DNA of 64,000 bases from an uncultured Planctomycetota bacterium (GCA_963845755.1 CAWJTV010000032.1:1-64000), one strand, 5' to 3'. Positions 12,374 through 41,504 are shown, numbered from the stretch's first letter. Notes: generated by a model from the letters alone, not told the origin. Numbers and translations are program-made.

Positions 12374-12466
12374 GACAGACTCCGTTTCCTGGGCGCAATT
12401 CTCCTCAACAACGTCCGCAATCCCTCTTGTGTACAAAAAATCCACCAACTTTCAAGACGCCCACCG

Positions 12467-19860: not shown

Positions 19861-19969
19861 CTGGCAACGACCGATCAGACTGAGGATAATGAACTTCCGA
19901 CGTCTTTTGACTCGAATCTTGAGCCGCTACCCACAACCCGCCACGGAAACGTCATACCGGAGTAAGGAC

Positions 19970-21295: not shown

Positions 21296-21513
21296 GACGT
21301 TTTACCGATCTCATCAAGATGAGCATGCCGGTGCCGTCGTCCCGGTTCTTTTTGATGGCCTGCATTACGCGCCGATGACAACGATGGTCGTTATTCCTGA
21401 GCGTTGCATGGAAAACTAAACTTCTTCGGGATGATCGGCAGCCAAGGACTTCTCTCGCAGACTTTTCTTGTAGGAGCCGGCTCCGTGCCGCGGTGCCCCG
21501 AGTTTAGTTTTCT

Positions 21514-21861: not shown

Positions 21862-22286
21862 TGGGCCGGCGCGGTGGTGCGATGCCTCACAAGCATTCCC
21901 AGCACGAGCTCAAACGCCTCATCGAGCGAGCTGTGGCGGACATCTGCGTTATGCCCCGCCCAGGCCTCTATTTCTGTGTCGATGAGGTCGCGGTCCACGG
22001 CCGGCCTCTTGAGCGGCTCGAGGTCTGGGCGACGCTCCACTTCCTGCCCGAAGGCTCGCCCTTCTGCTGCGGTGAGTCCGGGTGCCATCTCGGCCTGCGC
22101 TCTGGCGACTACACCCGAAGGGTCAGCGACCATGTCCGCCGCGCGATGCACCTCCGGCAGGATCTCACCGTAGACTTCGGAGACCGGATCAGGGCCAATT
22201 ATCATCCGGGCGTTTCATTCCACCATGGTCGAGCCGACGTCTCAGAGTGCGCTGCCTTGGCTCCAGCCCGCGGCGGCAGCGTTTAG
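21861..22286 (+). CDS. Hypothetical protein with a Cys cluster
   Basis: TGATG overlap with the P-II stop codon; contains PFCCGESGCHLG. Confidence 0.45.
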   Translation: MGRRGGAMPHKHSQHELKRLIERAVADICVMPRPGLYFCVDEVAVHGRPLERLEVWATLHFLPEGSPFCCGESGCHLGLRSGDYTRRVSDHVRRAMHLRQDLTVDFGDRIRANYHPGVSFHHGRADVSECAALAPARGGSV

Positions 22287-22348
22287 TATGATCAGGGCGG
22301 GTTGTTCGGTGGGTCGGGCCTCGAATCCGAGGTGATGGGGGTAAGTGG

Positions 22349-23062
22349 ATGGGTATCGGTGCGGTGATCTTCGACTTCAATGGGGTGCTGGTCAACGACG
22401 AGTCGGTGCACTTCGCGTTGTTCCAGGAGGTGCTGGCCCAGGAGGGGGTGGCGATTACGGAGCGGGACTACCACGAACGTTACCTCGGCTACGATGACCG
22501 GGGCTGTTTCGAGGCGGCCCTGCGGGATGGCGGCCAGTCGGCTGACCGTCCACGGCTCGACGAGCTGATCGCCCGCAAGGCCCGTCGGTACGTCCAGGTC
22601 GCCGAGAAAGGCCTACGCTTCTTCCCCGAGGCGGCCGAGACCCTGCGCACCGTCGCGTCGCGCTGGCCCGTGGCCATCAACTCGGGAGCCCTGCGTCCCG
22701 AGATCGAATATTCCCTGCGTCGGATGGGATGCCTCGAGATGGTCTCCGCGATCATCTCGGCTGAGGACACCGACAAGTGCAAGCCCGACCCGGAGGGCTA
22801 TCGGCTGGCCCTGGCCGCGTTGCAGGCTCGTCACGGATCGCTCGACGCGGGACCCGGGCCAGGGGAGCTCTCCGCCTCGGACTGCCTGGTGATCGAGGAC
22901 AGCCTGGCCGGGATCGTTTCGGCCAAAGGGGCCGGGATGTGGGCCGTCGGCGTGGCCACCACCTATGACGCCGACCAGCTCCGCGAGGCCGGGGCCGATG
23001 CCGTCATCGAGGCGCTCGTGGTGGCCACCCCCGAGTGGATCGAGCAGCGGTTCTGCCAATAG
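22349..23062 (+). CDS. HAD-superfamily phosphatase (beta-PGM-like)
   Basis: IFDFNGVLVND, NSGA, KPDPEGY, VIEDSLAGI. Confidence 0.9.
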   Translation: MGIGAVIFDFNGVLVNDESVHFALFQEVLAQEGVAITERDYHERYLGYDDRGCFEAALRDGGQSADRPRLDELIARKARRYVQVAEKGLRFFPEAAETLRTVASRWPVAINSGALRPEIEYSLRRMGCLEMVSAIISAEDTDKCKPDPEGYRLALAALQARHGSLDAGPGPGELSASDCLVIEDSLAGIVSAKGAGMWAVGVATTYDADQLREAGADAVIEALVVATPEWIEQRFCQ

Positions 23063-23164
23063 AGCGGCTTGCATTCGGGTTGCACACGGCTTCGTGGGGT
23101 GCCCGGTGAGCACCAATTCCCGTGGTTCGTCCTTTCCGATGCTCACGGAGCACCCTGCTGAGAG

Positions 23165-24367
23165 TCAGCTCAGGAACCGCATCTCGACGATCGAGAAGTC
23201 ATCGACGAACTCTTCGCGGCCCTGGATCGCCCGGTCGTGGGCGATGAGTCGGTCCATCATGGCGCCGTCGTCGGCCTCGTGGGGACCCGGTTTCATGAAC
23301 GCGACGAACTGGTCGAACGGCCACATGGTCTTGTCGGTCTTCTCGATCTCGTAGACGCCGTCGCTGTAGAGGTACAGCTTGGCGAAGGCGTCGAGGGAGA
23401 CGCTGCCTCCCCGGTACGGGATGTCGGGGACCGCGCCGATCATCGGGCCGTTCGAATCGAGGGTCTCCAGCGCGGCCCGGTCGGCCGACGGCCCGTTCAC
23501 GAGCAGGACAGGGGGGTGTCCGCCTCCGGCGTAGTCGAGCCGCCGGGTCGGCTTGTGATAGACCCCGTACCAGATGGTGAAGAACAGGCCGTTCTGCTGG
23601 TCCATCTGGAAGGCGTTGTTGAGCGCCGCCAGCACCTCGCTGGGCGCGCGGAAATCGGTCTGGGGCAGGGCCTGCGAACGCAGGGCGTTCATCGCCGAGA
23701 CCGAGAGCAACGCCGAGCCGACCCCGTGGCCGCTGACGTCCAGGAGGAAGAAGGCGAAATGCTCGTCGTCGAGCCAGTAATATCCGAACGAATCGCCCCC
23801 CAACTCGGCCGAGGGGACGTATCGCCAGTCGGTCCGGATCTCGCCCTTCTTGAGCTTCTCGGGCAGGAGCGAGCGCACGTAACGCGCGGCCTGGTTCATC
23901 TCGTTGGCCAGCCGCTGCTCGCTCTCCTGGAGCCGGACGTAGGCCTCGTTGCGCTGGAGCAGGTTGATGTAACCCTTGGAGTGGTATCGGATCCGCGCCA
24001 GGAGCTCGAGCCGGTCGGGGAGCTTGACGATGTAATCATTGGCCCCCAGCGCGAAGGCCTCGGCCTTGACCGTCGGCTCCTCCTTGGTGGAGAGCACGAT
24101 CATCGGGGTCTCGCGGGTCGGCTCGTTGCCCCGGAACGTCTTCACCAGGGTCAGGCCGTCGATCTCGGGCATGACCAGGTCCTGGAGAATGACCGTGGGC
24201 TTGACCCGGTCCGCCTCGTCGAGCGCCTTGGCGGCGTCGCGGCAGTAATGAAAGACGACATCCGGCTCGCCGGCCAGCATCCGGCGCACGGCCTCGCCGA
24301 TCATCGGCTGATCGTCGATCAGCAAGACGGTGACCTTGTGCTGGGTCAGGATCGGTTCGCTGCTCAT
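23165..24367 (-). CDS. WspR-like receiver domain fused to a PP2C/SpoIIE (RsbU-type) phosphatase
   Basis: LLIDDQPMIGEAVRR...KPTVILQDLVMP...LSTKEEPTVK...ANDYIVKLPD, then GGDSF, LDVSGHGVGSAL, YSDGVYE, DDFSIV. Confidence 0.9.
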   Translation of the reverse strand: MSSEPILTQHKVTVLLIDDQPMIGEAVRRMLAGEPDVVFHYCRDAAKALDEADRVKPTVILQDLVMPEIDGLTLVKTFRGNEPTRETPMIVLSTKEEPTVKAEAFALGANDYIVKLPDRLELLARIRYHSKGYINLLQRNEAYVRLQESEQRLANEMNQAARYVRSLLPEKLKKGEIRTDWRYVPSAELGGDSFGYYWLDDEHFAFFLLDVSGHGVGSALLSVSAMNALRSQALPQTDFRAPSEVLAALNNAFQMDQQNGLFFTIWYGVYHKPTRRLDYAGGGHPPVLLVNGPSADRAALETLDSNGPMIGAVPDIPYRGGSVSLDAFAKLYLYSDGVYEIEKTDKTMWPFDQFVAFMKPGPHEADDGAMMDRLIAHDRAIQGREEFVDDFSIVEMRFLS

Positions 24368-24394
24368 GCTTCACCAGTCTTCAGTTTTCAGTTT

Positions 24395-25466
24395 TCAGTA
24401 AGCGTAACCGCGCACGCCGCTGCCTCCTACCAACGAACGACTGCCTACCAGACGGATCATCGCCTCGGCGATCTGGCTAACGTGCAAGACTTCTTCGGCG
24501 GCGCCGATCTCGATGGCGGCCTTGGGCATGCCCCAGACCACGCTGGAAGACTCATCCTGGGCGATGGTCCGCCAGCCCAGGTCGCGGAGGGCCAGCAGAC
24601 CCTTGGCGCCGTCGTGGAACATGCCGGTCAGGAGCGCGGCGACGCCCGGCCGGGGCCAGTTCTGGGCGACGCTCTGAAAGAACACGTCCACCGAAGGGCG
24701 GTAATTAGCCGACCGGGGCTCGGGTGAATAGTGGAGGCGCCGGTCCTCGCCCAGGACGAGGTGATCGTCGGTGACGGAGAGCAGCACCTCACCGGCGACG
24801 GGCCGGTGCCCTTCCGCGATCAGGGTGACCGGCCGGCGCGATTGCTCGGCGAGCCACTGCCCCAGCCCGGGCGCGAACGCTGCATCCACGTGCTGGACGA
24901 TGATGAGCCCGGCCTCGAGCCGCGCGGGGAGTCTCCCCAGGATCTCGGCCAGCGCCTGCGGGCCGCCGGTCGAGGCGCCCAGCACCACCAGGGGTTCCAG
25001 CGTCGGCTCGACCGGGACCGGCGGCGCGCGAACGATCCCCGCCGCGACAATCCCGCGCCGGCCTCTCCGACTTCCCGATCAGGCGGCCGATCAGATCGAT
25101 CTTGTGCAGCAGCACGGCGGCCCCGCCGACTTCCCCGCGGGCGCCGAGTGTCGGGGTATCGATGGCGTCGAGCGCACCGTAGCCCATCGCCTGATACACC
25201 TTGGTCAGATGGCCGCTCACCGTCGCCGTGACCACGAGGATGGCGCACGGCGACTCCCCCATGATCCGCCGCGTCGCCTCGACCCCGTCGATCCCAGGCA
25301 TGACCAGGTCCATCAGGATCAGGTCCGGGCGAATCTCCCGCGCCAGTGCGATCGCCTGGCCGCCCTCGTTCGCCGTCCAGGCCACCTCGTGCTCCGACGA
25401 CGAGAGGACCACGCGGCGCAACGCCTCGCGGGCCAGCACGGTGTCGTTCACGATCCCGATTCTCAT
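24395..25466 (-). CDS. cheB: CheB/WspF-type REC-methylesterase (frameshift ~25050)
   Basis: MRIGIVND...MDLVMPGIDGVEATRRIM; GASTGGP, IVQHVD, RPSVDVFF, LLTGM, AQDESSSVVWGMP. Confidence 0.88.
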
Positions 25467-25614
25467 GGCCGTCGGCTTCGACTCCACCCGCGCGATTGGA
25501 AGTGGACAAGAGGGACGCGCGCATCCCTCACCCGACCTTCAAGGCGACCCCACCGCGGCCATTGTACCACGCGGTCCGAGAATACCGAGAGGGATGGTCC
25601 AGCCCGAGCGCGAC

Positions 25615-26067
25615 TCATCGATTCGCCGGATTCCCTTCGATCGCCACGGCGTCTCGGACGATCCTCTCCCGCCAATGTTCGGGATCGCTCTCGATCTCAT
25701 CCATGAATCGCCGCGCGATGGGACTGGGAGGCCGTGTCCCTTGCTCCCACGACCTTACGGTATTGGCGTTGACGCCGAGGAACCGGGCGAAGAGGACCTG
25801 GCTCATTCCCAGCAAGTTGCGGACCCGCCGCACGTCGTCCGGCCCGTAGTCGCGCGGAGTGAAATCGACCTTGTAAGTGCGTACCGTGAAATGACGCTTT
25901 AAAGGTTCCCTCGTCCGCATCAGGGAGATGGCCTCCTCGAGCGCGCGAACAATCTTCGCCCCCGCTGCTGACAGCTTCCCCGTGGACGGGGGGGAAGACG
26001 CCCGCTTGGACGATCGCTTCCGGTGATCGATGGCTTCCTTCGATGTCTTATCGGCCGGCTTTCCCAT
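25615..26067 (-). CDS. HigA-like XRE-HTH antitoxin
   Basis: VRRVRNLLGMSQVLFARFLGVNANTVRSWEQGTRPP; lies downstream of the toxin gene. Confidence 0.85.
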   Translation of the reverse strand: MGKPADKTSKEAIDHRKRSSKRASSPPSTGKLSAAGAKIVRALEEAISLMRTREPLKRHFTVRTYKVDFTPRDYGPDDVRRVRNLLGMSQVLFARFLGVNANTVRSWEQGTRPPSPIARRFMDEIESDPEHWRERIVRDAVAIEGNPANR

Positions 26068-26485
26068 TGCTCCCTCCACCCTTGCGGTTAACCTCGGATC
26101 TCTGCCCTCGACGGAATTCCGACTCCAGTTCGATTCGATAGCTCTCGATCATCCGGGCGATGACCCGGCAGTCCGCCTTGGTCAAGTTGTCCTTCTCGGT
26201 CTTGCCGAAGATCACGACCAGCGCAATGGTCCCGAATTCGGGAAAGACCACATAGCAGACTCGATGAGATCCTCTCTTGCCTCGTCCCGATCCCGGACCG
26301 GAAAAACGGATCTTCCGCAGACCACCGGTCCCCTGGACAACCGGTGCCCCGACTGGATCTTTCATGATCTCCAGTTCCAGGAGGCGCAAGGCCGCATCAT
26401 TCAAGCCGAGACGTTCCCATTCCCGTGTGAATGCGGGAAACCGGACGAATCGCGGCCAATCCTCGGGCCGGAAGGATTCTGCGAT
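26048..26485 (-). CDS. HigB/RelE-like toxin; apparent ATC start
   Basis: VQGTGGLRKIRF...GKRGSHRVCY...IFGKTEKDNLT. The frame extends upstream to AGGAGG-CGGC-ATC at 26485. Confidence 0.8.
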   Translation of the reverse strand: MAESFRPEDWPRFVRFPAFTREWERLGLNDAALRLLELEIMKDPVGAPVVQGTGGLRKIRFSGPGSGRGKRGSHRVCYVVFPEFGTIALVVIFGKTEKDNLTKADCRVIARMIESYRIELESEFRRGQRSEVNRKGGGSNGKAGR

Positions 26486-26715
26486 GCCGCCTCCTACGAT
26501 GCACCACTTGATCCCGTAAGATCGTCCGAATTATACCACCCAGTGGCAGAAAGGGAAGTTGTCGGACCTCGATGGCTTCTGGCCGCGTACTGATCACCGA
26601 ATTGAAGAAAAGGCTCCGAGGCTCCTGGCATCCAACCTCCAAGGCTGGCATGATGCTCGAACGATCGACGTCAGAGTGCCTCAGGAATCAAGACGACGCA
26701 GCGAAAGGAGCGAAC

Positions 26716-28032
26716 ATGGCACGGCGATTGTTGGCGGTGATGTTGTGTCTGTCGGTTTTGATCGGCTCGGCCTGGGCACAAGGCCCGGCCGGGCGGGGCG
26801 GACGTCGTGCGAGGGCCGTCGCGTCGCGTCCGATCGTGCTCAAGCCGGCGCGGGTGTTCGACGGGGTGAACCTCGACGTTCATGACGGCTGGGCGGTCGT
26901 CGTCCGTGGCGATCGGATCGAGACCGCCGGGCCGGCTGGCGAGGTGAAGGTCCCCGAGGGGGCCAGGGTCATCGACCTGCCCGGCATGACACTCCTCCCG
27001 GGCCTGATCGACCTGCACACGCACGTCCTGCTCCATCCGTACGATGAGGCCCTCTGGGATGACCAGGTCTTGAAGGAGGCGCTGGCGCTGCGGGTCTGCC
27101 GCGCGACCAACCACTTGAAGAGCACGTTGCTCTCCGGGTTCACGACGATCCGCGACCTCGGGACCGAAGGGGCCGGTTATGCCGACGTCGGGCTGAAGCA
27201 GGCGGTGGAGCAGGGGATCGTCCCCGGCCCGCGGATGCTGGTGGTCACCCGGGCGATTGTGGCCACCGGCAGCTACGCGCCCAAGGGGTTCGCTCCCGAG
27301 TGGCACATCCCACAGGGGGCCGAGGAGGCCGACGGCGTGGATTCCTTGATCCGGGTCGTCCGCGACCAGATTGGTCGAGGTGCCGACTGGATCAAGGTCT
27401 ATGCCGACACGGCGATGGGCGGCGCGGCGGTCCGACCGTCGTTCTCGCTGGAAGAGTTGAAGCGGATCGTCGAGACGGCGGGCTCGGTCGGCATCAAGGT
27501 CACGGCCCATGCGACGTCGAAGGAGGGGATGCGCCGCGCGACACAGGCGGGCGTCGCGACCATCGAGCACGGCGACGGCGGCGATGACGAGGTCTTCAAG
27601 CTGATGGCCGAGCGCGGTGTCGTGCTCTGCCCGACCCTGGCCGCCTTCGAAGCCTCGGCGAAGCACCGCGGCTATCGTCCGGGCACCGACCCCGAGCCGC
27701 CCCGACTGAGGCGTGCGCGGGAGACCTTCAAGAAAGCCCTCGCCGCGGGCGTCACGATCGCCAACGGCAGCGACATGGGCGTCTTCGCCCACGGCGATGG
27801 CGCACGCGAGATCGAGCTCCTGGTCGACTACGGCATGAAGCCGGCGGAGGCCCTCCGCGCAGCGACCTCGGTGGCCGCCAAGGCCATCGCGTTCGACAAC
27901 CGCCTCGGCGCCATCAAGCCGGGGCTCCTGGCCGACCTCGCCGCCGTCGAGGGCGACCCGACCCGCGACATCAAGGCCCTCCGGCAAGTTAAGCTCGTCA
28001 TGAAAGGCGGAGAACTCTATAGAGAGCCGTGA
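26716..28032 (+). CDS. Secreted metal-dependent amidohydrolase (Xaa-Pro dipeptidase-like)
   Basis: RBS AAAGGAG, signal peptide, PGLIDLHTH, GADWIK, TAHA, TIEHG, NGSD, GLLADL. Confidence 0.92.
   Translation: MARRLLAVMLCLSVLIGSAWAQGPAGRGGRRARAVASRPIVLKPARVFDGVNLDVHDGWAVVVRGDRIETAGPAGEVKVPEGARVIDLPGMTLLPGLIDLHTHVLLHPYDEALWDDQVLKEALALRVCRATNHLKSTLLSGFTTIRDLGTEGAGYADVGLKQAVEQGIVPGPRMLVVTRAIVATGSYAPKGFAPEWHIPQGAEEADGVDSLIRVVRDQIGRGADWIKVYADTAMGGAAVRPSFSLEELKRIVETAGSVGIKVTAHATSKEGMRRATQAGVATIEHGDGGDDEVFKLMAERGVVLCPTLAAFEASAKHRGYRPGTDPEPPRLRRARETFKKALAAGVTIANGSDMGVFAHGDGAREIELLVDYGMKPAEALRAATSVAAKAIAFDNRLGAIKPGLLADLAAVEGDPTRDIKALRQVKLVMKGGELYREP
27907..28032 (+). repeat. 126-bp direct repeat (attL-like), the functional 3' end of the amidohydrolase
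   Basis: Matches 34344-34469 without gaps; 62-bp identical core at 27928-27989. Confidence 0.95.
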
Positions 28033-28080
28033 AGCCAGATCGTTCGCGATCCACGCATCAGATTCGGACAACGTCCATCA

Positions 28081-28777
28081 TCATTGGACTTCCAGATTCC
28101 TCCGCACCCAAGCTGCAACAGAGAGGAGGAAAGCAAGCGGGTTAGGGTCGCCAATGGCCAGCCTGAGGTCGTTTTCCCCGGGCTCCTCCAAGCCGCGAGA
28201 CCGTTCGACGGAGGAGGCTTTTGGGTGGGAGTTGAAGTGCAGGTGTGACGACGGATGCGCGGGGTTGTGTCCGAGGGTTCGCCTCCAATCTCGCAGCCAG
28301 TCCTCGCGCGGCGGTTTGCCCGCCTCACGCGCGTTGACTTCCCATCTCAAGTTGAACAAGCCAAACCTGCCCTCGTGCAGATCAAAGTCAAGGCTGATGC
28401 GACCTTTCATGATCTCGACGAGTGGAATCGTATCGCCTGGCGCGTAATGGGCGACAAACCTTGTCCAACTCGGGACACAGGTTCGGCCATTCAATGGGGC
28501 GCATCTGCAACAGGATCTCGGCCCGGCCTCCGCCTGAGACCTGGAGCGGCACCGTGGCGTTTTCGATACTTGACGATCCCGGCTTGAAATAGTGCTCCGC
28601 CGTATCATCCGAAACTCCAGCGACGAGGACAGCCCAGCGTGAGGCATCCTTCTCCGCTTTTTCAGTCCAATCGAACAGCGACTTATTCGGGACATCGCGC
28701 TTGAAGATTTGAGCCACGTCGAGACATCGCTCGAAAACCTTGATCATATGGCTGAGGCGATAATCGGAGGACGACAC
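28081..28777 (-). CDS. Hypothetical protein with HPxSHLH motif (DUF2290-like; frameshift ~28455)
   Basis: Joins ORFs 28388..28777 and 28081..28695; C-terminal LRWE...HNPAHPSSHLHFN...DLRL...PNPLAFLLSV. Confidence 0.55.
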
Positions 28778-28783
28778 GGGGCG

Positions 28784-29395
28784 TCAACCTTCGTCAGAGG
28801 AGGGAAGGGGCGCCCAATCCGCAAGCTCCTCGGCGGTGGGCGCTCTCCCGGGGAGTTGGCGCAAGATGCTCTCAAACGGTTCGGGCAGGGCTTTCTGGAG
28901 TTTTTCAAAAGTCTCCCTCGAGCACACCATCATCATCCGAGAGGCATCAGAGATTCTCGGGCCGATGAACGAAGCCAGGTCGGGCGCATTGCGCCGGAAG
29001 TCCATGAAATCGGCATTGCGAACGACCATCAGCGTACCTCTCGGCTCCGACAAGGGGCGGCGCCACCCATTGAGACGGGGCCCGACCTGTATACTGACAG
29101 CCTGTTGGAGGAATAAGATCCAAAGCGGATGAGGAGGTGGAGGCGAGTCGTCGATCTGGTCTGGCATTCCTTCCTGTTCGACCTGAACGCGGAGTCTTCC
29201 TTGTATCATGTCATTCAGCTCTTTGATTCGTGTCACCTCGTTTGAGATCAACAGTGGTTGGGTGGGCATCTCGCCGAGAGCGGCGATGGTGATCAACAGG
29301 ACGCGATACAAGTCATCCATATCGTCCCAGAGCAAGGCGTGAACGCCGTGCCCTTCCTCATGCAACGAGAAAGCGAGTTGTTCGACGAGCGCCAT
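28784..29395 (-). CDS. Hypothetical protein, possibly a degenerate P-loop/ATPase partner
   Basis: 203 aa; LNGWRRPL...FRRNAPDLASF motif; starts 1 nt after the ATPase stop codon. Confidence 0.6.
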   Translation of the reverse strand: MALVEQLAFSLHEEGHGVHALLWDDMDDLYRVLLITIAALGEMPTQPLLISNEVTRIKELNDMIQGRLRVQVEQEGMPDQIDDSPPPPHPLWILFLQQAVSIQVGPRLNGWRRPLSEPRGTLMVVRNADFMDFRRNAPDLASFIGPRISDASRMMMVCSRETFEKLQKALPEPFESILRQLPGRAPTAEELADWAPLPSSDEG

Positions 29396-29396
29396 G

Positions 29397-30738
29397 TCAG
29401 GCCGTGGCTCCTAACCTCTGAAAGCGGTACTGCCCGAGGGTCGTCCGAGCGAGCGGGTGGACACGCAGGCTCGGCTTATCAGCATCACGGTGCGGCTCGC
29501 TGACTAATAACCCGATCGGGGATCTCAAGAGTAATGCGGCCTTCGCCAAACCGGTCCCCGATCGATCAATCTCATCGAGCGATTGGAGTTCTTCCTCGCC
29601 ATAATCCAGGTACGCCTGCCTGGCATCGAAAACAACGGAGTGGGCTTCTCCCAATTCGATCCGGTCGTGTTCCGCGAGATGGGCCTCCTGGGCGGCCTCG
29701 GCCAAGAATTGGACAAACATCCTCAGAATGCCGCCGCTGTAATGGGCGAGCCACCTCAGAGCATCCTCCGAAACCAGTTCCCTGAGCGCGGCACTCTTGG
29801 CGATGGACCGATAGATCTCGGGAATCGGCCCTTCAATCGGATCGGGTATCTCCAACGGGTACAGGATCAGCGGCCGACCCCAGCGCGACTCGACAGAAGT
29901 CCTCGTCGGACCGATGGTGTATTCAAAAGGGGCGGTCATGACAACGGACGCCTCAAGACGGCTCCATTGTGGTGAGACGCCCACAAGGACATCCTCGGCG
30001 GCGTAGGAGTCTCGGATCTTATCGACGTGGTCGATGATCAGAAGTGGAGGACGGTTCTGATCGTTCCGGGCGAACCACTTCAACAGCTTATTTAGGAGTA
30101 CCACGAGGGCATCGGGCGCGCAGCGCGAATCGCTGGGACGGCTCCGCGACCGACTCGTGGAGCGCGGCTTTGCCGAGGATGATTCCCAAGGCCCTCGACC
30201 TGTCGGAAAGCGAAATCGGAAAATCCATACCGCCGAATGTGAAAACAACTTGTGAGCCATCGCCCGCGGAGATGCCGCGCAGCCAATCCACTAACCGTGT
30301 CAAAATCTCATCGCGAATCCTGTCGAGAGCAGCTTGCTGGAGCTGAGGACCGCGCGGGAAAATCTGTGTAGATGCCCAACAATCGCGCAGGATGGTCAGG
30401 AACAGCCCTGTCGAGCCGCAACGCTCGGGACTCTCCTCTTTTTCGAGGTCGCAAAATACCGGGAATCCCAGGTCAGCCGCGTTGTATCGCTCTTCGCGGA
30501 AATCCCAGAGCTCCGACGACTTGCCAACGCCGATCTGCCCCGTCACAAGTATTCTTGCCTTCCCCATGCGACTCTCGACGCCAAGGAGGAGTCGCTTCCT
30601 GAACTCTCCGCCGCGTTCCTGATAGAGTGTCCGCGCAGGATCGCCTTCCTTGGGAAGACGACGTTCGGCACGCCGCTCGGCGTTGAGCCGACCCAAGACG
30701 CTTCGGAGGATCTGAATATCGCGCAAGGACGCGGGCAT
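29397..30738 (-). CDS. P-loop (STAND/AAA-like) ATPase (frameshift ~30120)
   Basis: Walker A GQIGVGKS, Walker B LLIIDHVD, SGGILR, C-terminal VHPL. Confidence 0.8.
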
Positions 30739-30937
30739 GACTGCTCCGAGAGACTTCGAAGTTCGAGGGTGACCGATCACACTAGGAAGACCGTAACTGC
30801 GACTTTGCTTCTTTACGTATGATACCAACCACCCTTCCCGGCAACGAGCCGAGGTTACACAAGCTGGTCAGGCTCCTGGGAAGTGCGGGGAGCTTGAGCG
30901 GGAGCCATGAGCCGCATCGACCGCCGCGCCCGTCTCC

Positions 30938-32026
30938 TCAGCGCCCGACGAGATCTCTGAACTGCTTCTCGTTGATGATACAAATCGCATGACCCAGCCG
31001 GATCAACTTCTCCGCCTGGCAGAGCTTGTCCCCTTTGTGGCCATTTCTATAGTGGGGTGAACGACGGCCCTGAACGATGACATCGACCCGAGTCGAGACT
31101 TCATCGGCAACCGATCCGCCGGCCTGCCTCACCATGACCGCGGCGTCGAACCGAGGGATCGTGAGGGGACCGGTGAAGACGACAGTCTTCCCGGCGAGGC
31201 TCTCCAGGCAAGGCTCAATGTGATCAGCGTCAGCCTGGAGGGCGCGGAGCATCTCGCGGGCGTCCGGGTACCGCGACTTGCGCGGGCAAATGGCCTTGGC
31301 GATGATGCGCTTGAGGTCGTCGTCGCACGTGAGTCCCTTGAGGTCTCTCTTGCCGAGCAGGGTATGGGGATCACCCCTGAGCAGCATCCCTAACAATTGA
31401 CCCATCTGGTAGACATCGTCCGAGGGGAGGACGTAACGTTGCAATCCCTGAGCCATCCGGGTCGACACAAAATCGGGAGCGAAGGCCGAGGCGGTTGCCG
31501 CGCGTCCCGCGAGCACATGCTTGGCGATGCCAAAATCCCCGAGCTTGAGCCGTCGATTGCAGAGGAAGACATTCCTCGGCGTGATATCTCGGTGCAAGGC
31601 CCCGGCGTCGTGGAGTTGAGAGAGCAGCTTCAAGAGAGCGATGATTTCCTGTACGGCGCGCTTCTGCGACCAGGGCCTCCGTGTTGATTCCAGATGATCG
31701 TGGACCGTGCCGGATTCCACAAGTTCGGAGACCAGGCAGTAGAGCACTTCATGCCCCTTGGGATTCGGGAAGAATGGGAACGATTCGTACATCCGAATCG
31801 CCCTGTCGCTCTTCTTGAGGAGTTCACCGAAGTAGGCCTCGTGGTGCCAGCTTTTCGCATCGGTCGTCGTCTTCAGGCAGAATCCCTCGATCCGATGGTC
31901 TCGCTTGTTGAGGCGATGGGCCCGATAGGCACACCCGAATCCGCCTTCCCCCAGCATCTCCGCAACCTGGTATCGCTGGCCGGACACGGGGCTTGTGATG
32001 ATGATTCCCGACTTGAGTCTTGCCAT
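30938..32026 (-). CDS. Ser/Thr protein kinase with C-terminal BRCT domain
   Basis: GEGGFG, CLK, HRDITPRN, LGDFG, DVYQMG; BRCT LAGKTVVFTGPL...AGG.V...VSTRVDVIVQG...K...A......IINEKQF. Confidence 0.88.
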   Translation of the reverse strand: MARLKSGIIITSPVSGQRYQVAEMLGEGGFGCAYRAHRLNKRDHRIEGFCLKTTTDAKSWHHEAYFGELLKKSDRAIRMYESFPFFPNPKGHEVLYCLVSELVESGTVHDHLESTRRPWSQKRAVQEIIALLKLLSQLHDAGALHRDITPRNVFLCNRRLKLGDFGIAKHVLAGRAATASAFAPDFVSTRMAQGLQRYVLPSDDVYQMGQLLGMLLRGDPHTLLGKRDLKGLTCDDDLKRIIAKAICPRKSRYPDAREMLRALQADADHIEPCLESLAGKTVVFTGPLTIPRFDAAVMVRQAGGSVADEVSTRVDVIVQGRRSPHYRNGHKGDKLCQAEKLIRLGHAICIINEKQFRDLVGR

Positions 32027-32487
32027 GTCACATTCTCCTCGACGAGATCGATCAAGATCCCGCCCCAGGTCCGCGAATCCCTGACTTGCCTGAGATTGGA
32101 AGGGGATCTACGTTGCCCGAGAAGGATTCGGATCGGTCCAACTATTGACCGTTCGCGAACCCTGCTGTTGCCGTTTTGACCCATTTTATTGTGTCTCTCG
32201 CGTATGATCCAGAACCTTGATGATCGGATCGAGCGATCATTTCGGAAGACGGCTTGTCGAGACGCCCTGCGTACGGATGCGATCCGATCTCTGAGGGCTG
32301 CCCCCTGGCAAATCCGGCTATTCTGGATATGCTTGGGGTGATGCATCGTGGAGTCGATCGATCGGCATCCGCTGCTCAATGCGGTATCGAGCTACCGGGC
32401 GCTTTGTGCTCGCCGCGATGGGATCCGTCCCGTCTCGGTGCCGAACGATATCGACCCCGAGAGTCCCTGAAACGATCGGTTTAACTC

Positions 32488-34297
32488 ATGGCCTCAGTCG
32501 CAAGCACCTTCAGGACCGACTCCCCGTTCTTGCATGAATTGCTCGACCAGATCCATAAAGGGAGCGTTCAACTTCCCGACTTCCAGCGCGGCTGGGTCTG
32601 GGACGATGACCGCATCCGGGCCCTGATCGCCAGTATCTCGCTCTCGTATCCCATCGGTGCCGTGATGCTGATGGAGACCGGCGGGAACGGTGTGCGGTTC
32701 AAGCCGCGGCCCGTGGAAGGCGCGCCCAGGCTCGGCCGGCTGAGCCCCAGCGCCTGATCCTCGACGGTCAGCAGCGGCTAACCTCGCTCTATCTGGCCTT
32801 GCTTAGCGGCAGGCCCGTGAAGACCCAGACGGCCAAGAAGGAGCCGGTTGAGCGCGTCTACTTCCTCGACATAGCCCAGTGCCTCGATCCCGACGCCGAC
32901 CGGCTCGACGCCATCGTGTCACTCCCATCCAACCGGATGCGCAAGAGTGACTTCGATCGAAAGATCGACCTCGACGTCAGCACGGATGAGAAGGCGTACG
33001 AGATTGGTCTGTTTCCTCTCGACATCATTTTTGATTGGGAGAAATGTGCCGCTTGGCAAGAGGGTTACAGCGAGCATTTCGGCTACGACCCATCGAGATT
33101 GCGATCCTACAATAAGTTCGCGGCGACGGTCCTCAATCGGCTCCACAATTACCGCGTCCCCATCATCGAGCTCCTCCAGACCACACCCAAGGACGCTGTC
33201 TGTCAGGTCTTCGAGAATGTCAACACAGGCGGCGTCGCCCTGACGGTCTTCGAGCTGATGACCGCAACCTACGCGGCGGATGACTTCGAGCTGCGCAAGG
33301 ATTGGGAAACTCGGTCGGCTCGCATGCACAAGCACCGTCAGCTCAGGGAAGTTGATTCGGACGACTTCCTGATGGCCGTGACGCTACTGGCGACCTATCG
33401 TAGCAAGCAAGCCGACGGCAAGACGGCCGTCAGTTGCAAGCGGAAGGATGTCCTGAATCTCGGCCTCGATACGTACAGAGCTTGCGCCGACCAGATCGAG
33501 AGAGGGATGCTGCAATCGGCCAGGTTGCTGACTCGCGAGAAGGTCTTCGACAACAAGACGCTCCCCTACATCACCCAGATCGTTCCGCTGTCGGCAATCT
33601 GTGCCGTGCTCGGTTCCCGGTTCGAGGAGGATCCGATCAAGCGCCGGCTGAGCCGGTGGTACTGGTGCGGCGTCTTCGGCGAGCTGTACGGCGGTGCGAA
33701 CGAGAGCCGGTTTGCCAATGACATCCAGGATGTCCTGGCCTGGCTCGATGGGGGCGAGGAGCCACGAACGATCCGCGAATCGAACTTCGCTCCGTCCCGA
33801 CTTCTGACCCTCCAGACTCGATTGAGCGCAGCCTACAAGGGACTGATGGCCCTGCTCATGAAAGCCGGCAGCCAGGACTTCCTCAGTGGCGACCCGATCG
33901 AACTGACGAACTACTTCGATGCTGCCGTGGATATCCACCACATCTTCCCCGCGAAGCACTGCGAGGATCAGGACTATGATCGCCCGCGATGGAACAGCGT
34001 GATCAACAAGGCACCGCTCTCGGCCCGCACCAACCGGATCATCGGCGGCAAGGCTCCCAGCGAGTATCTTGGGAGCCTCGAGAAGAACCATAAAGTCAGC
34101 CCAGAGCGGCTGGACCAGATACTTCAGAGCCACCTGATCGAGCCTCACCTGATCCGAAAAAACGCCTTTGACGACTTCCTCCGCGCCGCGCCGGCCGATT
34201 ACTGGACCTTATCGAGAACGCCACCGGAAAGCCGATCCCCGGACGCGATTCCGACGAGGTCGTCAACATCTTCAGGGGAACTCTTGCCAGGGAATGA
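32488..34297 (+). CDS. GmrSD-like DUF262 protein with C-terminal HNH-like domain (frameshifts ~32745 and ~34185)
   Basis: [37 protein letters not shown]...[14 protein letters not shown]. Confidence 0.85.
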
Positions 34298-34343
34298 GCG
34301 GGCGGGTCAAGGAGAGAGCAATAAGCCGGCTCGACAGCCGTCC

Positions 34344-34469
34344 GGCGCGATCAAGCCGGGCCTGCTGGCCGACCTCGCCGCCGTCGAGGGCGACCCGACC
34401 CGCGACATCAAGGCCCTCCGGCAAGTGAAGCTCGTTATGAAAGGGGGCACGCTGTATCGGGAGCCGTAA
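34344..34469 (+). repeat. 126-bp direct repeat (attR-like), orphan amidohydrolase 3' end
   Basis: Encodes [41 protein letters not shown]. Confidence 0.95.
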
Positions 34470-34487
34470 CGGAGAAGAATACGCATT

Positions 34488-34730
34488 ATGAAGACCATCG
34501 ATTTCGCCCAAACCCAACCGGATGTCGCCCTCTTGCTCGATCAGGCACGCAACGACGATCTGATCCTCTGCCTGGCCGACGGAACGGAATTCTTGCTGGT
34601 GGCCATCGATGATTTTGATGAGATCACCCGGAACCGGAGCAATCCCAGACTGATGTTTCTCCTGGAGTCGCGGGCCAAGCAGACGGCGACTATCCCCTTG
34701 GATGAAGTCAAACGGCGGCTGGGCTTGTAA
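34488..34730 (+). CDS. Phd/YefM-like antitoxin-type small protein
   Basis: 80 aa; MKTIDF...LLDQARNDDLIL...; C-terminal IPLDEVKRRLGL; RBS GGAG. Confidence 0.6.
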   Translation: MKTIDFAQTQPDVALLLDQARNDDLILCLADGTEFLLVAIDDFDEITRNRSNPRLMFLLESRAKQTATIPLDEVKRRLGL

Positions 34731-34816
34731 GATCCTCCATTGATCCGCGCCGGCCCGCGCCGGAGAATACTCGATGGGAGTCTCCGTTCCGGCTCGCGAA
34801 TCCGCGGGGTGGTCCC

Positions 34817-35650
34817 ATGCTGTGCCAGATGTGCCTCGAAGCCGATGCGACGATCCACATGCTCGACCGACCGGCGGCCGACCGGTTTGTGGAGGCCGAC
34901 TACTGCCAGACCTGTTATCACCTCAAGTACGTCAACCCGCCGGCCAGTCGGCCCGTGCTCCCCCGGCCGCGGTTCACGATCAAGAAGCTGATGATCTTCG
35001 CCGCGGTCTTCGCCATTCCCAATACGGCCGTGGCCCTGCTCATGCGAAGCGGCCTGATCACGGGCACATCGGCCCAGATCCGCGACTGGACTCTCCAGGC
35101 TATTCTGGTCGCCAACTTCTTTTGTGGCGTCATCGCCGCTTTCATCCTCTCGCAAAATTGGCTGCAAAAGGCACAGTGGCATAAGATGACCGGCGGCCTG
35201 GTACCGATGACGCAGCCGAGAAAACTGTCCCTCAAAGAGTATCTCAAGTTGCCCCTCGTCGTCGCGTCGATCGTCTTCTGGTACCTTGCCGGCCTCTTCC
35301 TCATCGACTGGCTGACTCCCATCCTGTGGCCTGGGCGGCGGCCCGACCCTGCGTTGTCAACCTGGATTCTCTCGGCACCCTTGCTCGCGTGGGTCTGTCT
35401 GCGGCTGAAGTCGAATCGCCACGTAGTCCAGCGGGTTCGCGGTCTGTGGCGGGGCGCGTCCGGGCGCGAGCGGACTTTCCGGGCCCTAGCCCTCTCATGG
35501 TCCTTCGTGATCGTGATCGTCATGTTCAGTGAAAGCTGGATGCGCTGGTTCTCGAATCCCATCGTCTCCCTTTGCGCCCTTTCCTTGATCGCGCTGGGTG
35601 GCCAGGTGATCTTCTTCTCAGGCGCTGTCGCCGTGACCCGGCGTCGATAG
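34817..35650 (+). CDS. Membrane protein with N-terminal CxxC/CxxC zinc finger
   Basis: MLCQMCLEADATIH...YCQTCY followed by about 6 TM segments. Confidence 0.7.
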   Translation: MLCQMCLEADATIHMLDRPAADRFVEADYCQTCYHLKYVNPPASRPVLPRPRFTIKKLMIFAAVFAIPNTAVALLMRSGLITGTSAQIRDWTLQAILVANFFCGVIAAFILSQNWLQKAQWHKMTGGLVPMTQPRKLSLKEYLKLPLVVASIVFWYLAGLFLIDWLTPILWPGRRPDPALSTWILSAPLLAWVCLRLKSNRHVVQRVRGLWRGASGRERTFRALALSWSFVIVIVMFSESWMRWFSNPIVSLCALSLIALGGQVIFFSGAVAVTRRR

Positions 35651-35743
35651 CCGGCGGTCCATTCTGGAAAAACTTGGAACGATCGCCCGCGTCTCTGCAC
35701 TCATAGAGGAAACAGCAGCGACGTGGCGTGGAGGGCCGGCGGC

Positions 35744-37943
35744 ATGGCAACCGGACATCGCGGTTCTGTTATGGATTCCTTGGGGCGGCTCTTCGACTCG
35801 GGGACCGTGACGGGCTTGAGCGAGGCTCAGCTCCTGGAGCGATTCCTGGTCCATCGCGACGAGTCGGCCTTCGAGGCGATCCTCCATCGTCACGGGCCGA
35901 TGGTCCTGGGCGTCTGCCGGCGCATCCTGGACGATCCGCACGACGTCGCCGATGCCTTTCAAACCACCTTCCTGATCCTGGTCAAGAAGGCCCGGTCGAT
36001 CCGCGATCGCGACGTCCTGGGGACCTGGCTTTATGGCGTGGCCCGACGGGTCGCGGTGCGTGCCAAGGTCAACGCCCGGTGTCGTCGAACCCGCGAACGG
36101 ACCGAGGCAGAGGGGCTGGACGTGCAACAACCGCGCGGGGATCGACTCGAGGCGACCGAACTGCGAGCCCTGATCGACGACGAGTTGGAGCGGCTGCCGT
36201 CGCGATACCGCCAACCCATCATCCTCTGCGACCTCGAGGGCCAGACGCACGAACAAGCTGCGGCGCTGATCGGCTGCCCGGTCGGGACGGTCAAGAGCCG
36301 GCTGTCGCGGGGCCGCGAGCAGCTCCGGTCGCGACTGGTCCGCCGCGGCGTTGCGCCCTCCGCGGCGCTGCTGGCCTCGACGCTCGCCGCCGACGCCGCA
36401 CAGGCCGTGCCCGTCGAATGGATCAACCAGACCCTCCAGGCCGCCGTGACGCTCGCGGCCGGCAATGCCGTTGCGGCCGGGACGTTCTCGGCCGGAGTCG
36501 TGACCCTTTGGAAAGGTGTCGTTCGTTCCATGTTCCTCGCCAAGCTGAACTACGCCGCGGCCGCCGTGATGGCGGTCGCCCTCGCAACGACCGGCGTCTG
36601 GGCGCTCGTCGGCCCGAGTCCGGCGCAACCGGTTCGGGATGAAACCGTCGCGGTTCCGGCCCAGGCTCGGGTGGCCCAGGCCCCGGCTCCATCATCGGCC
36701 GCCCCCTCTGCGCCCCAGGAGCGAAACGTCGAGCGGTTCCAGCTCGACAACGGCCTGAAGGTGATCCTCCGGCCGATCCAGTTTGCCCAATCGACGGCCC
36801 TGGTCGTCGTGTACGGAATCGGCGGCGATCACGATCCCGCCGACCGATCCTGGCAGGCTCATTTCGTCGAGCATCTCTACGTGACCGCCGCGGCCGGCGA
36901 CACCAAGGCGCGGACCGCTGAGGAATTCGCCGCGCCGATACCCCGACGGAATGAATGCGCAGACCGGCGGCCGGCACACGGTCATCGCGACCGTGTGCCC
37001 GAAGCAGGACCTCGATGCCGAACTACGGGACGCCGCGGCGCGCATGAACGACCTCCGGATCGAGCCCGCCGACGTCGCTCGCGAGCGGCCCCGACTCCAC
37101 CAAGAATACGATAGCATGTTCGTGCGAATCCCGGCGCTGGCGGCCATGAACCAGGCTCGCTGGCGACTCCGGCCGGTGCCGTTGAACCCCCTGGATCTTG
37201 ATAAAGTCACGATCGATGAGCTCCGGGCCCACTGGAATCGCTATTACAAGCCGCGGAATGCGACCCTCGCCCTGGCCGGAGCCCTCGATCCGGCCGCGGC
37301 CCGCGCGGCGATCACGGCGTACTTCGGGAGCCTTCCAGGCGGCGAAGCCGCCCCCACCCCGAATGAGCCGCGCTATCAGATCTTCAGCACCACGGGGCAG
37401 ACCATCGAGTCTCCGATCCCCGGCGCCTATCCCATGGCCTGCGTCGGCTACACCGCGCCCCAGCCGGGCAGCGATCTGTACGCCCCGCTGCTGGTCCTGG
37501 TCTCGCGGCTCCTGGCCGCTGCGTCGAAACTCGGCGAGGGCGGCCCGACCGGCTCACCCGTCTATTTCGCGCCGCTGGATGACGGCACCGTCGTGGCCGT
37601 ATCGGCGAAGGTCCAGTCCGGCGAGTCCAACGACCAGGCGATCGGCCGGCTCGAGGCGTTCGTGGCCGAGACGATCGCGCCCAAACTCCGCGATAGCGAG
37701 CGGGCCGCCGCGCGGCAGCAGTTCGCGCGGCTGCTTGGGCTCGGCGACCTGCCCGACATCTTCCTGGTAGGGAACCCCTACGGCGTGGCCTTGTCGCTGG
37801 CCCGCCGCGAGCAATGGAGCCTCGACGTCGCCAAGCTCAACCGCGCGCTCGACGCCTTGACCGAGCAGGATCTCCGCCGCGCCGCCGCCGAGATCTTCGC
37901 CACGACCCACCACTCCGGATTTGTGATCAGGTACCGCAAATGA
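35744..37943 (+). CDS. ECF sigma-70 factor fused via a TM helix to an M16 (insulinase-family) peptidase (frameshift ~36935)
   Basis: Region 2 [19 protein letters not shown]...DAFQTTF, region 4 [13 protein letters not shown] segment, then LDNGLKVIL...[23 protein letters not shown]. Confidence 0.85.
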
Positions 37944-38551: not shown

Positions 38552-41504
38552 TCAACGTTTCGACTTGTGATGCGCGGGGAGAGGGTGACCCGCGGCCAGC
38601 TCCTTCAACTTCGACCGCCATGCGGCGGCCTTCTCGGGCTGGCCCCAAGACTCGTAGAGTTCGCAGACCTCTTCGCAGGCCCCGACGACGAGGTGCCCGG
38701 CGAGCAATTGCGGGATCTGGGCCTCGCGGGCCTTGAGTCCCTCGTACCCCTGGATCAGCCACGGCTCGGCATCGGCATATTTCTTCTGTCCGAACAGCGC
38801 AGTGCCGATCAGCGCGTGGGCATGGGACGTCTCCCAGTCCCCCGGCCGCGCCTTTTGTAAGATCGCCAGGCCCTCCCGTAAGATGGGTTCGGCGTCGGAA
38901 TAATGCTCGCCCACGATCAGATAGTCCCCCACTCTGACCATCTCCTTGCCGTACTCGGCGGATTTTGGCCGGGGCTTCTTCCGCTCCGCCGCTAGCCACT
39001 TCCGCCGCCAGAGCATCGACTCGTCGTGCTCCCCCAGTTCTTCCAGGCAGCGACATAAGTGACCGACAATTTGACCGGCCTGCTCGTGGGTGAACTCCAG
39101 CTTCTCGAGTCCTGCCACCGCCTGATGCCACAGGGCCAGTGCCGGTTTCACCTTCCCGGCGCCATGGTACGCCTGGGCGAGGTTGTCCAGCGTATGAATG
39201 GTGTGCGGGTGATAGGCACCGAGAAGCTTCACACGCGCGTCCCTCACCTGCTCGGCCAGGGCGATGGCCTCGTCCGTGCGGCCGAAGGCCCGGTACTTCC
39301 CGGCTAGATTGTCGAGGACGTTCAGGGTCAGCGGATGGTCCATCCCGAATTTCGGCACGACCGCGTCCCGGGCCTGCTCGAACAGGGCGACGGACCGCTT
39401 CATCTGGCCGACCGATTGGCAGGCGAACGCCAGAAGTCCCAGGGAACGGAGGGCGACGGGGTGGTCCGGTCCGAGCTTCTTCGCCCGGACATCCCGTACC
39501 TCCTCGAGTAGCTCGATGGCCTCGTTCCCCCTGCCGGCACCCACATACGCATCGGCCAGAGATTCGAGGGCGGCCAGGGTCAGGTCATGATCTCCGCCGA
39601 GCCTCGCGACCCGGACGTCACGGACTCGCTCCAGCAAGGCGATTGCCTCGTCCGGCCTCCGGCTCCTCGAGTACATCAAGGCCAGGTCCCTCTCGGTGTT
39701 GAGGGTGTCCGGGTGTTCGCCGCCGAGGTGCTTCGCCTGAGTGTCCCGGACTCGCTCCAGCAGGGCGATCGCCTCGTCCGGCCTCCCGGCGGAGTCGAAG
39801 GCCAGGGCCAGGCTATACAGACTGGCCAGCGTGAGTTGATGGTCGGCTCCGAGGTGGGCTTTGCGGGTCGCGGAGGCTTTCGCGAATAGCGACTCGGCCT
39901 GGGCGGCTCGACCCAGGCCCAGGTGGGTCCGGCCCAGCCGATCCTGCAACTTGGCCATGACCAGAGGGTCGCCGATCGCCTCGCCGTCCAGTTCGGCGGC
40001 CGCCCGGTCCAGGCGGTCACCCAGGATCGCCCGCAGGGGCCGACCCTCCTTTTCCTCCGCCTCGGGATCGAGTTCTTCGAAGATCGAGCCGAGGACGGCG
40101 ATCCCTTTCTCGATCTGGTCGAGGCAGCCGCTCGGCCATCTCCTTGGCCTGCCGCTCGTTCCGGGCGCGCGCCGCCTCCGACCGCCGCGCCGCCTCGGCC
40201 TGCACCAGCCCGACCGTCGTCCCGACGATGCCGCCGGCCAGCAGGAGAACGATGGTCGATGCCGCCAGGACCGGGCCCCGGTACCGCCGCAGGAACTTCC
40301 TGAGCCGATAAGCGGTCGAGGGGGGCGAGGCCTCCACCGGCTCGTCATGCAGATAACGCTGGATATCCCGGGCCAGGCCGCTCGGCGTCTCGTACCGCCG
40401 CGTCCGGTCTTTTTCCAGGGCCTTCATCACGATCCAGTCGAGCTCGCCGCGCACTATCTTGGCCAGCTTCGCCGGCTCGGTCCCCCGCCGTGCCGCGATC
40501 GACGCCGTCTCCTCCGTCGTCAACAACCGAGTGCTCGGCCTGGGCGGATCCTCCTCACGGATCCGGCGCAGCATCTCCGTGAACGCCGCGCCCCGCAGTC
40601 GCTGCCGTTCCAGGGGCGTGCTGCCGGTCAACAGCTCGTAGAGCAGGACGCCCAGCGAGTAGATGTCGCTCCGGGTGTCGATGTCCCGGCCGCTCATCTG
40701 CGCCTGCTCGGGGCTCATGTACTCCGGAGTGCCCACGATCGCGCCGAGCTGCGTGAAGAGCGTCCGCTCGGTCAGGCGCTGGTCGATCGCCTTGGCCACG
40801 CCGAAATCGATCACCTTGGGAAGCGGCCTGCCGTCGTGGAGGGTCACCAGGACATTCGACGGCTTGATATCCCGGTGGATGATCCCCTTCTGGTGCGCGT
40901 GCTGGATCGCCTGGCAGACCGACATGAAGAGCTCCAGCCGCTCCTTCGCGGTCAGCCGGCCCTGGTCGCAATAATCGGTGATCGGCACGCCGCTGACCAG
41001 CTCCATGACGAAGAACGGCCGGCCGCTGTCGGTCGTGCCGGCGTCGAGGACCTTGGCGATATGGTTGTGGTCCATCAGGGCCAGGGCCTGGCGCTCGGCC
41101 TCGAACCGGGCGACGACCAGGGCCGTGTCCATCCCCGGCTTGATGACCTTCAAGGCTACTTTGCGCCGGACGGGCGTCTCCTGCTCGGCCAGGAAGACGA
41201 CGCCCATGCCCCCTTCGCCGATCGACTGGAGGAGTTTGTAGGGCCCGATACGAGTGCCAGGCCCCTCGGTGATCGGCCGGGGCGTGGGCTGGCCGACGGC
41301 GAGCGCGACATCGTGGTGAGTGCTGGGTCCCGGGCCATGGACGGGCGGATCGAGCAGGTCGCCCGACTGCTCGTGGGCTCTCAGCAGGGCCTCGACGCGG
41401 CGGCGGAGCTCGGGGTCGCCGGTACAGGCCGCCTCCAGATAGGCGGCGCGCTCGCTCGACGTGGACTTCTCCAACGCGGCGTCGAAGATCGATTCCTCAC
41501 TCAC
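38552..41504 (-). CDS. Ser/Thr kinase with TM segment and TPR repeats (frameshift ~40130)
   Basis: [32 protein letters not shown]; kinesin-light-chain-like TPRs (LGxDHPxTL). Confidence 0.92.

Follow-up and report, generated by a model that had tools for sequence, protein, structure and literature searches.

An integrase-less island of putative defense genes inserted behind a duplicated amidohydrolase gene end in a planctomycete genome

The window analyzed here is a stretch of 64,000 nucleotides (nt) from an uncultured Planctomycetota bacterium (GCA_963845755.1, CAWJTV010000032.1:1-64000; genome G000, 114-kb contig C32). In it, an intact amidohydrolase gene is followed by 6.3 kb of lower GC content filled with genes of defense type and then by a second, diverged copy of the gene's own end (Table 1). 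The interval between the two gene ends is an insertion, and its general architecture is, with high confidence, that of a mobile island bringing its own replacement for the end of the gene. The amidohydrolase stays whole after the insertion (the Pfam match extends to residue 482 of 486), and the relic of the gene end (34343-34469) is joined to the host flank. The protein matches NF051886 (Xaa-Pro dipeptidase-like) with 311 bits, under the cut-off of 500, and its orthologs in the genus g45 are at 87-88% nucleotide identity.

A repeat search of the window returns one direct repeat, of 125 nt, with copies 90% identical and a spacing of 6437; together with the alignment it confirms the preliminary description of a 126-bp gene end that recurs 6.4 kb downstream around a 62-bp core, which is the longest identical run. 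Over 126 positions the copies differ at 14, and a gap of 62 nt among 14 randomly placed differences arises in 0.05% of 200,000 permutations. In the frame of the amidohydrolase, the differences at codon positions 1/2/3 number 2/2/10, an excess at position 3 (binomial P 0.004 vs. one third expected). Twelve of the 42 common codons are affected, 11 of them synonymously (the TGA/TAA stop included) and one with an E/T change (GAA/ACG), so that the near-absence of amino acid changes noted earlier also holds. The tails behind the core differ at 11 of 45 nt. No third copy of the repeat, or of an attachment (att) site, is found in the bacterium's own 14.3-Mb genome, which is 88% complete.

The GC content at third codon positions (GC3) separates the two tails. 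It amounts to 389/452 in the body of the gene, 19/20 in the core, and 11/14 in the displaced tail; in the tail that ends the gene today (27988-28029) it is 8/14 and island-like, the island genes having 0.64-0.79. The contrast between the tails and the mostly synonymous divergence point to two lineages of origin, with some probability left for later divergence (P = 0.036 against a model with one functional and one neutral copy). Since the copies differ by synonymous changes and in codon usage, one of them appears to have come from another lineage and to form the present gene end.

The relatives show where the host sequence resumes. The closest loci inspected are 13, that of G000 and those of 12 relatives at 79-88% nucleotide identity. 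The island is present in two (G000 and G066), and the empty site that the preliminary description had proposed to look for is found in five (G015, G068, G091, G093, and G086). In G015, from another genus of the same family, contig C532 carries the 3′ half of the gene and then directly the homolog of 34470-34816, which includes an open reading frame (ORF) of 80 amino acids (aa); in the window, this ORF begins 18 nt behind the tail of copy B. In G068, G093, and G086, as in a metagenome contig (L071), the 80-aa ORF lies within ~470 nt of the amidohydrolase stop, while the empty site of G091 is without it and continues with the homolog of window position 34732 onward. Because these relatives show the gene end and then that flank, the tail of copy B and the sequence downstream correspond to the original host arrangement. 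An apparent homology of ~17-20 nt past the stop, between the left sides of the islands (attL) and G068, is too weak to be used. The one further species of the genus, G001, is without an amidohydrolase ortholog (best match 32% aa) and has no DNA-level synteny with window 18000-37900, while G015, G008, and the genus g45 have such synteny; either the region is variable or the binning of contig C32 is questionable.

At the other six loci, 3.7 kb of ordinary genes (extracytoplasmic function [ECF] sigma factor, kinase) separate the amidohydrolase gene from the same flank in G092, other ordinary genes continue after it in G069, G067, G062, and G090, and the contig of G106 ends 1.2 kb past the gene, with no island homology in that stretch. 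The genes downstream in G067, G062, G090, and G092 (short-chain dehydrogenases/reductases, ECF sigma factors, kinases, a peroxidase, DUF1501) were considered as a different cargo and set aside, no displaced fragment accompanying them. Among 76 metagenomic orthologs (80 loci, with at least 500 nt downstream in 58, at least 2 kb in 34, and at least 5 kb in 17), there is no second gene-end fragment and there are no island genes; three weak second gene-end matches (E 0.077-0.73) were judged to be noise. The site had been proposed as a hotspot for the exchange of defense cassettes, with different cargo behind the same 3′ end. The loci do not bear this out: two of the 13 close ones are occupied, both with the same left module, and none of the 76 metagenomic ones.

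The second occupied site, in G066, belongs to the genus g45 and comes from an independent short-read assembly, with the same architecture and each junction on its own contig. Contig C595 carries the gene and then, to the contig end, homologs of window 28033-30638 at 77-78% nucleotide identity; contig C82 starts 146 nt before the displaced gene-end fragment and goes on with a flank 88% identical to that of G068. The repeat of G066 is 105 nt long with one mismatch, and on the left it starts at the same position as the G000 core, to within 1 nt. For the rest of the G066 island, the N terminus of the island's NTPase matched contig C595 only.

The homology between the current gene tail and the G066 island runs unbroken across the stop codon. 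Between the two genomes, the attL tails differ at 10/45 nt, in 8 codons, with all changes synonymous and none non-synonymous; because of this, the island-borne gene end appears to be under selection at the protein level. We infer that the last 14 codons and the stop of the amidohydrolase are island-supplied, and the earlier suggestion that the incoming DNA had its own coding-constrained gene end is supported by the tail GC3 and by these eight codons. The relics on the right side (attR; core and tail) differ at 11/105 nt between G000 and G066, with 9 codons changed synonymously and 1 not, while the island-side arms just upstream of the attR cores are identical at only 28/56 positions. Since the relics have diverged so little, and synonymously, next to arms at this level, they probably functioned as gene ends through most of the period after the hosts split, and both insertions would be young relative to the G000/G066 split.

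In a tree of the gene body (17 sequences; G015, whose contig is without the 5′ part, was left out), G066 is sister to the empty G068 (support 0.995) and G000 falls outside the g45 clade. With this placement two gains suffice, vs. about five independent losses for a single ancient gain. For the island genes of G000 and G066 the synonymous divergence (dS) is 0.87-1.47, with a ratio of non-synonymous to synonymous divergence (dN/dS) of 0.13-0.16; for host genes dS is 0.43-0.77. Judged by these distances, the two islands are old relatives and not the outcome of a recent transfer between these lineages; the island protein p203 is present in 2 of 121 genomes of the family. An insertion in the common ancestor of G000 and g45, inherited vertically, lost repeatedly, and with a relic kept up by gene conversion, would agree with island genes at least as diverged as the host genes and with a left junction that is the same in both genomes; direct repeats would ease precise loss, and the perfect core could be a conversion tract. 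Such a history is nonetheless improbable. Beyond the losses that the tree demands, the differences between the G000 tails speak against recent conversion there, the relic has no indel and codes for the same peptide but for one change, when a neutral relic of that age should resemble the 50%-identical arms, and the right ends of the two islands differ, the GmrSD-type gene that abuts the right repeat in the window not being found in G066.

Frame changes interrupt p230, the NTPase, and the GmrSD-type gene. Host genes are split too: ORFs 35723-37114 and 36951-37943 (an ECF-sigma/M16-peptidase fusion) are one 733-aa ORF in G066. The host genes of 38552-41504 are also frame-split, and the sister long-contig assemblies G067-G069 show frame splits in the amidohydrolase itself. 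The pattern points to indel errors typical of long-read assemblies. Because host genes and sister assemblies are split in the same way, the frame changes are not read as decay, and the idea that the island genes are pseudogenes was rejected, also in view of their dN/dS. So many frame changes, host genes included, would suit an explanation without any mobile event, in which the gene end was duplicated in situ and decayed, or in which the assembly joined two related strains by mistake. We regard this as very improbable: the same layout occurs in the independent assembly of G066, the third-position bias departs from neutrality (and from the model with one functional and one neutral copy), and the interval stands out as foreign by its composition and by the empty sites.

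Table 1. Features of the locus and related cassette loci. Coordinates are those of the window unless a locus is named.
Feature	Coordinates	Strand	Basis
Amidohydrolase gene, 486 aa, intact	26572..28032	+	PF01979 E=3.2e-41, residues 140-482 of 486
Repeat copy A (attL side)	27906..28030	+	Repeat search, alignment
62-nt core, identical in both copies	27928..27989 (= 34365..34426)	+	Left edge within 1 nt of left edge of G066 repeat
Gene tail in current use, probably island-supplied	27990..28032	+	GC3, homology with G066 island, synonymous-only codon changes
Inserted island, 6.3 kb	28033..34342	.	GC 0.56-0.63 vs. 0.64-0.72 in flanking genes; empty sites
p230, third gene of NTPase cassette	28081..28777	-	230-aa ORF of G066 matches two frames (tblastn); frame change here
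p203, degenerate AAA+-like protein, second cassette gene	28784..29395	-	Model pLDDT 84.6; weak Foldseek matches
KAP/AAA_16-type P-loop NTPase	29397..30828	-	AAA_16 E=1.2e-4, below cut-off; one frame change ~30120
Ser/Thr protein kinase with BRCT-like C-terminal part	30938..32026	-	PF00069 E=3.1e-19; PADLOC PD-T4-6 E=1.7e-23
GmrSD-type (DUF262) gene	32488..34297	+	PF03235 in both pieces; PADLOC PDC-M55C, HEC-05; frame changes ~32750, ~34195
Weak amidohydrolase-like stretch left of core, 1-nt gap (island-side arm)	34320..34364	+	39/57 aligned positions match gene
Repeat copy B (attR side)	34343..34467	+	Repeat search, alignment
Displaced original gene tail, contiguous with host flank	34427..34469	+	Flank matches relatives; GC3 11/14
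Small conserved host-flank ORF, 80 aa, empty-site marker	34488..34730	+	Synteny in relatives; without family match
Cassette loci	window 28081-30828; L061 9914-12467; L062 9908-12444; L064 9881-12451; L065 ~9899-12515; L066 249-2841; L063 51-2191

Some further observations concern the amidohydrolase and its end. In G075 (contig C12, L153 ~6126-6240), the amidohydrolase's final 37 codons with the stop (SLLAHLEAIEGDPTNEINALRKVKLFLKGGTLYKRP*) occur as a diverged copy of low GC that stands alone, begins near the start of the repeat core, and adjoins two ORFs without assigned function and a ThiS-like gene, on another contig than the intact ortholog (C5); it could be a stray att-like mimic of the gene end or a relic. 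In G087 and G006, short stretches match the core at the nucleotide level but without support at the protein level, and were dropped. Upstream of the amidohydrolase (25500-26750) the GC content is lower (0.58-0.63), with an XRE-type helix-turn-helix gene at 25615-26079 (- strand), and in G066 (L040 718-1968) an extra ORF of 416 aa lies between the genes upstream of the amidohydrolase.

The cargo comprises three putative defense modules, a three-gene NTPase cassette, a BRCT-tailed kinase, and a GmrSD-type gene, the label of defense being based on profile matches and context. They are closely packed: p230 lies 48 nt from the stop of the amidohydrolase gene, and the GmrSD stop lies 67 nt from the core. 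In the cassette, the NTPase has 80% aa identity to a single ORF of G066 (the two window frames abut at 30119/30121), and its neighbors in the Atlas carry KAP_NTPase. The Foldseek matches of p203, to ORC/Cdc6, clamp-loader delta, and IstB, are weak (E ~1e-3, TM 0.4-0.47). The third protein, p230, has no match in Pfam, PADLOC, NCBIfam, or PHROG and no fold match (model with a mean predicted local distance difference test score, pLDDT, of 66); it contains a conserved His-rich motif, RWE.D..P..WLR.W...NP.H..SH.H.N.

The kinase matches the PD-T4-6 profile PDLC04042 over residues 15-222, as it does generic kinase profiles, and its C-terminal part resembles the BRCT regions of LigA and Pol III epsilon. 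A 126-aa ORF in G066 (contig C387, L067 ~1492-1692), in an unrelated context near the contig end, matches the kinase only in its last 64 aa, which are BRCT-like, at 80% identity. In the GmrSD-type gene, PF03235 matches with E=4.8e-13 on 32488-32757 and E=2.8e-6 on 32799-34469, and the motif LILDGQQR can be read at ~32760-32783 (with the DGQQR signature). The DUF1524 C-terminal His-Me nuclease has no Pfam match at E<=0.01; a stretch DIHHIFP, which may be the DUF1524 motif, is visible in the translation. The ORF 32799-34469, an apparent fusion of GmrSD with copy B, is an effect of the frame change at ~34195, the true GmrSD stop being at 34295-34297. Close homologs of the GmrSD and kinase genes are found at other places in sister genomes; their neighbors are toxin-antitoxin genes in G068, a type I restriction-modification system in G067, and, in G069, a transposase with three tyrosine recombinases in tandem. 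The GmrSD homolog of G069 has 79% nucleotide identity and lies, at L054 (contig C64, 10989-18625), near an IS4/5-family transposase and the three tyrosine recombinase genes, which form a recombinase-in-trio arrangement, in a long region of lower GC3.

The three-gene cassette recurs in six further genomes of planctomycetes (Tepidisphaeraceae, Pirellulaceae, Planctomycetaceae, Gemmataceae, and two unclassified), with an NTPase of ~440 aa (KAP/AAA_16; 52-58% aa identity), an AAA+-like protein of ~190 aa, and the motif protein of ~220 aa. Each time the housekeeping neighborhood is different, and in GC-rich hosts the cassette has a GC3 under that of its neighbors. None of the three proteins matches any PADLOC profile; the cassette is a candidate for an uncharacterized defense system. 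At the six other loci there are no amidohydrolase fragments and, among the neighboring ORFs scanned, no integrase. Direct repeats around the cassette are absent at four of five loci in other relatives, and the repeat at the fifth, L062, is not a gene end. That repeat (82 nt, 88% identical, at 8398-8479 and 12598-12679 in a Pirellulaceae metagenome-assembled genome) brackets the cassette and the last 1.3 kb of a 1272-aa ORF, its second copy being a fragment from the middle of the ORF.

A recombinase was sought at several levels. Pfam detects neither integrase nor transposase in any ORF between the copies, as the preliminary description had it. When the whole genome was searched in six frames, PF00589 gave 43 matches (tyrosine recombinases) and PF00239 gave 37 (serine recombinases), with none on contig C32. 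A recombinase hidden among the uncharacterized proteins was considered and discarded: p203 folds as a degenerate AAA+-like protein, p230 is without a fold match, and neither is recombinase-like. No integrase-bearing element is found at this site in the 12 close relatives or the 76 metagenomic orthologs, and the exact core pattern (41 nt, one N) has no match in metagenome contigs and none in viral contigs. An integrase with a matching att core elsewhere in the genome had also been suggested; the absence of a third att copy speaks against it.

The insertion falls within the last 105 bases of the amidohydrolase gene, and the island is likely to have entered in the following way. A circular form would carry a mimic of the gene end of ~105 nt, made of the core, the last 14 codons, and the stop. 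One reciprocal Campbell-type crossover within the 62-base core, between the island circle and the amidohydrolase gene, would produce a gene made of host body, core, and island tail, with the enzyme left whole. The host's own tail would be stranded at the opposite end of the island, a relic that keeps its junction with the host flank, and the island tail would be kept by selection, being translated whenever the island is integrated.

As to what drove the crossover, host homologous recombination rather than an integrase may be the answer, and we prefer it tentatively, with less than firm conviction. An identical stretch of 62-105 nt is long enough for RecA, which counts in its favor. Host recombination is further favored because the island is filled from edge to edge by selected cargo, with the margins given above, because no integrase-bearing element is seen at the site among the relatives and metagenomic orthologs, and because insertion with a long target duplication in units without mobility genes is on record, as stated in the cited part of PMC2993543.

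With the same architecture, the crossover could instead be the work of a site-specific integrase of the tyrosine type, which either came in trans from a helper element of the same att specificity or was once on the island and has been lost; the island would then resemble a cis-mobilizable element (CIME). The layout is classical, being the same as that of the element e14 with icd and icdC (as described in the cited part of PMC13626634), and the definition of a CIME, with attL and attR kept and the genes for integration and transfer gone, fits as it is worded in the cited part of PMC5704250. The left edge is sharp and common to G000 and G066, the identical block runs to the stop of the gene, and the genome of G000 is rich in recombinases. 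The island itself, with its intact-looking cargo under purifying selection, contains no integrase or remnant of one; the 67 nt between the last gene and the core are scant space for arm-type sites; a third att copy is absent from the genome; no phage contig contains the core (0 matches); and no helper element is found at this att site in the 12 relatives and the 76 metagenomic loci. On balance we consider this explanation possible and a little less likely than host recombination.

Several points weigh against host recombination. The left edge of the identical block is the same nucleotide (within 1) in G000 and G066, and so sharp a common edge fits what a fixed site-specific crossover predicts. 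Homology of 62-105 nt supports only low-frequency recombination by RecA in model bacteria. Phage 21 replaces the end of icd in the same manner as e14, and, to our knowledge, all studied gene-end replacements (e14, phage 21, and the integrative and conjugative elements [ICEs] in gene 3′ ends) use an integrase. Any of the 43 and 37 recombinases matched elsewhere in G000 could act in trans, and in G066 the island is unassembled in its middle and on its right, so that an integrase could sit there.

A bolder extension of host recombination, which we put forward as conceivable and with reserve, is that the island is a self-targeting, integrase-free unit whose portable arm of homology is a copy, under selection, of the final 35 codons of a conserved host enzyme gene. 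Host recombination would insert it scar-free at the same site across genera and excise it through the same repeat, and the mimic of the gene end would act as an att site without a recombinase.

If insertion is indeed driven by homology, small defense islands could have site-specific mobility without a recombinase, through a coding-constrained copy of a gene end. This would help to explain the many integrase-less defense islands and would offer a rule for their search, namely, gene-end duplicates with synonymous divergence. Even with an ordinary integrase, the locus extends gene-end replacement of the e14/icd type to the Planctomycetota (Isosphaeraceae-like genomes), gives sequence evidence for protein-level selection on an element-borne gene end (8 synonymous changes and 0 non-synonymous), and flags a conserved three-gene NTPase cassette as a defense candidate.

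Among known systems, the closest in layout is e14 of E. coli K-12. As described in the cited part of PMC13626634, e14 sits in the 3′ end of icd, which reads on into the prophage and keeps its function; a C-terminal fragment, icdC, remains on the other side, and the two gene ends, mostly synonymous variants of each other, are swapped by excision. As with e14, the island has direct repeats of a gene end, keeps the gene open, and leaves the displaced host end as a fragment. Unlike e14, a prophage of 15 kb that brings along a site-specific recombination system induced by the SOS response, it measures 6.3 kb, carries defense-type cargo only, and has no recombinase. In CIMEs, which derive from ICEs or from integrative and mobilizable elements (IMEs), attL and attR are retained and the genes for integration and transfer are lost (PMC5704250, in the part cited). 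The island shares both properties. CIMEs, however, are decayed ICEs or IMEs that share their att site, often as tandems, with integrase-bearing relatives, and neither such a parent or helper, nor a tandem, nor a gene remnant is found among the 12 relatives and 76 metagenomic orthologs, for which the data are incomplete.

The cited part of PMC2993543 reports insertion with long target duplication for types I-IV of restriction systems, mcrA on its own among them, and refers for it to Nobusato et al. 2000 and Furuta et al. 2010. Like those units, the island has defense genes without mobility genes between long direct repeats and a single-copy empty site in a relative, and a type IV-like GmrSD abuts its right repeat. 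The difference is that their repeats, as far as described there, duplicate the target, whereas the copies here differ by synonymous changes and in codon usage. The core defense hotspots cDHS1/2 of P. aeruginosa, which lie between conserved genes, have been proposed to be passed on by homologous recombination in their conserved flanks (PMC10250203, in the part cited). The present island is like them in having variable defense cargo at a fixed place and in not obviously belonging to a known mobile class. At cDHS1/2 every isolate is occupied and the cargo is very diverse; here two of 13 loci are occupied, with one common module, and the insertion is inside a gene with a duplicated end. In the literature searched, which did not extend to the possibly relevant primary papers of 2000 and 2010, we found no description of the combination seen here. 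A compact integrase-less defense island with a diverged, selected gene-end repeat, at the same site in two Isosphaeraceae-like genera, may be new.

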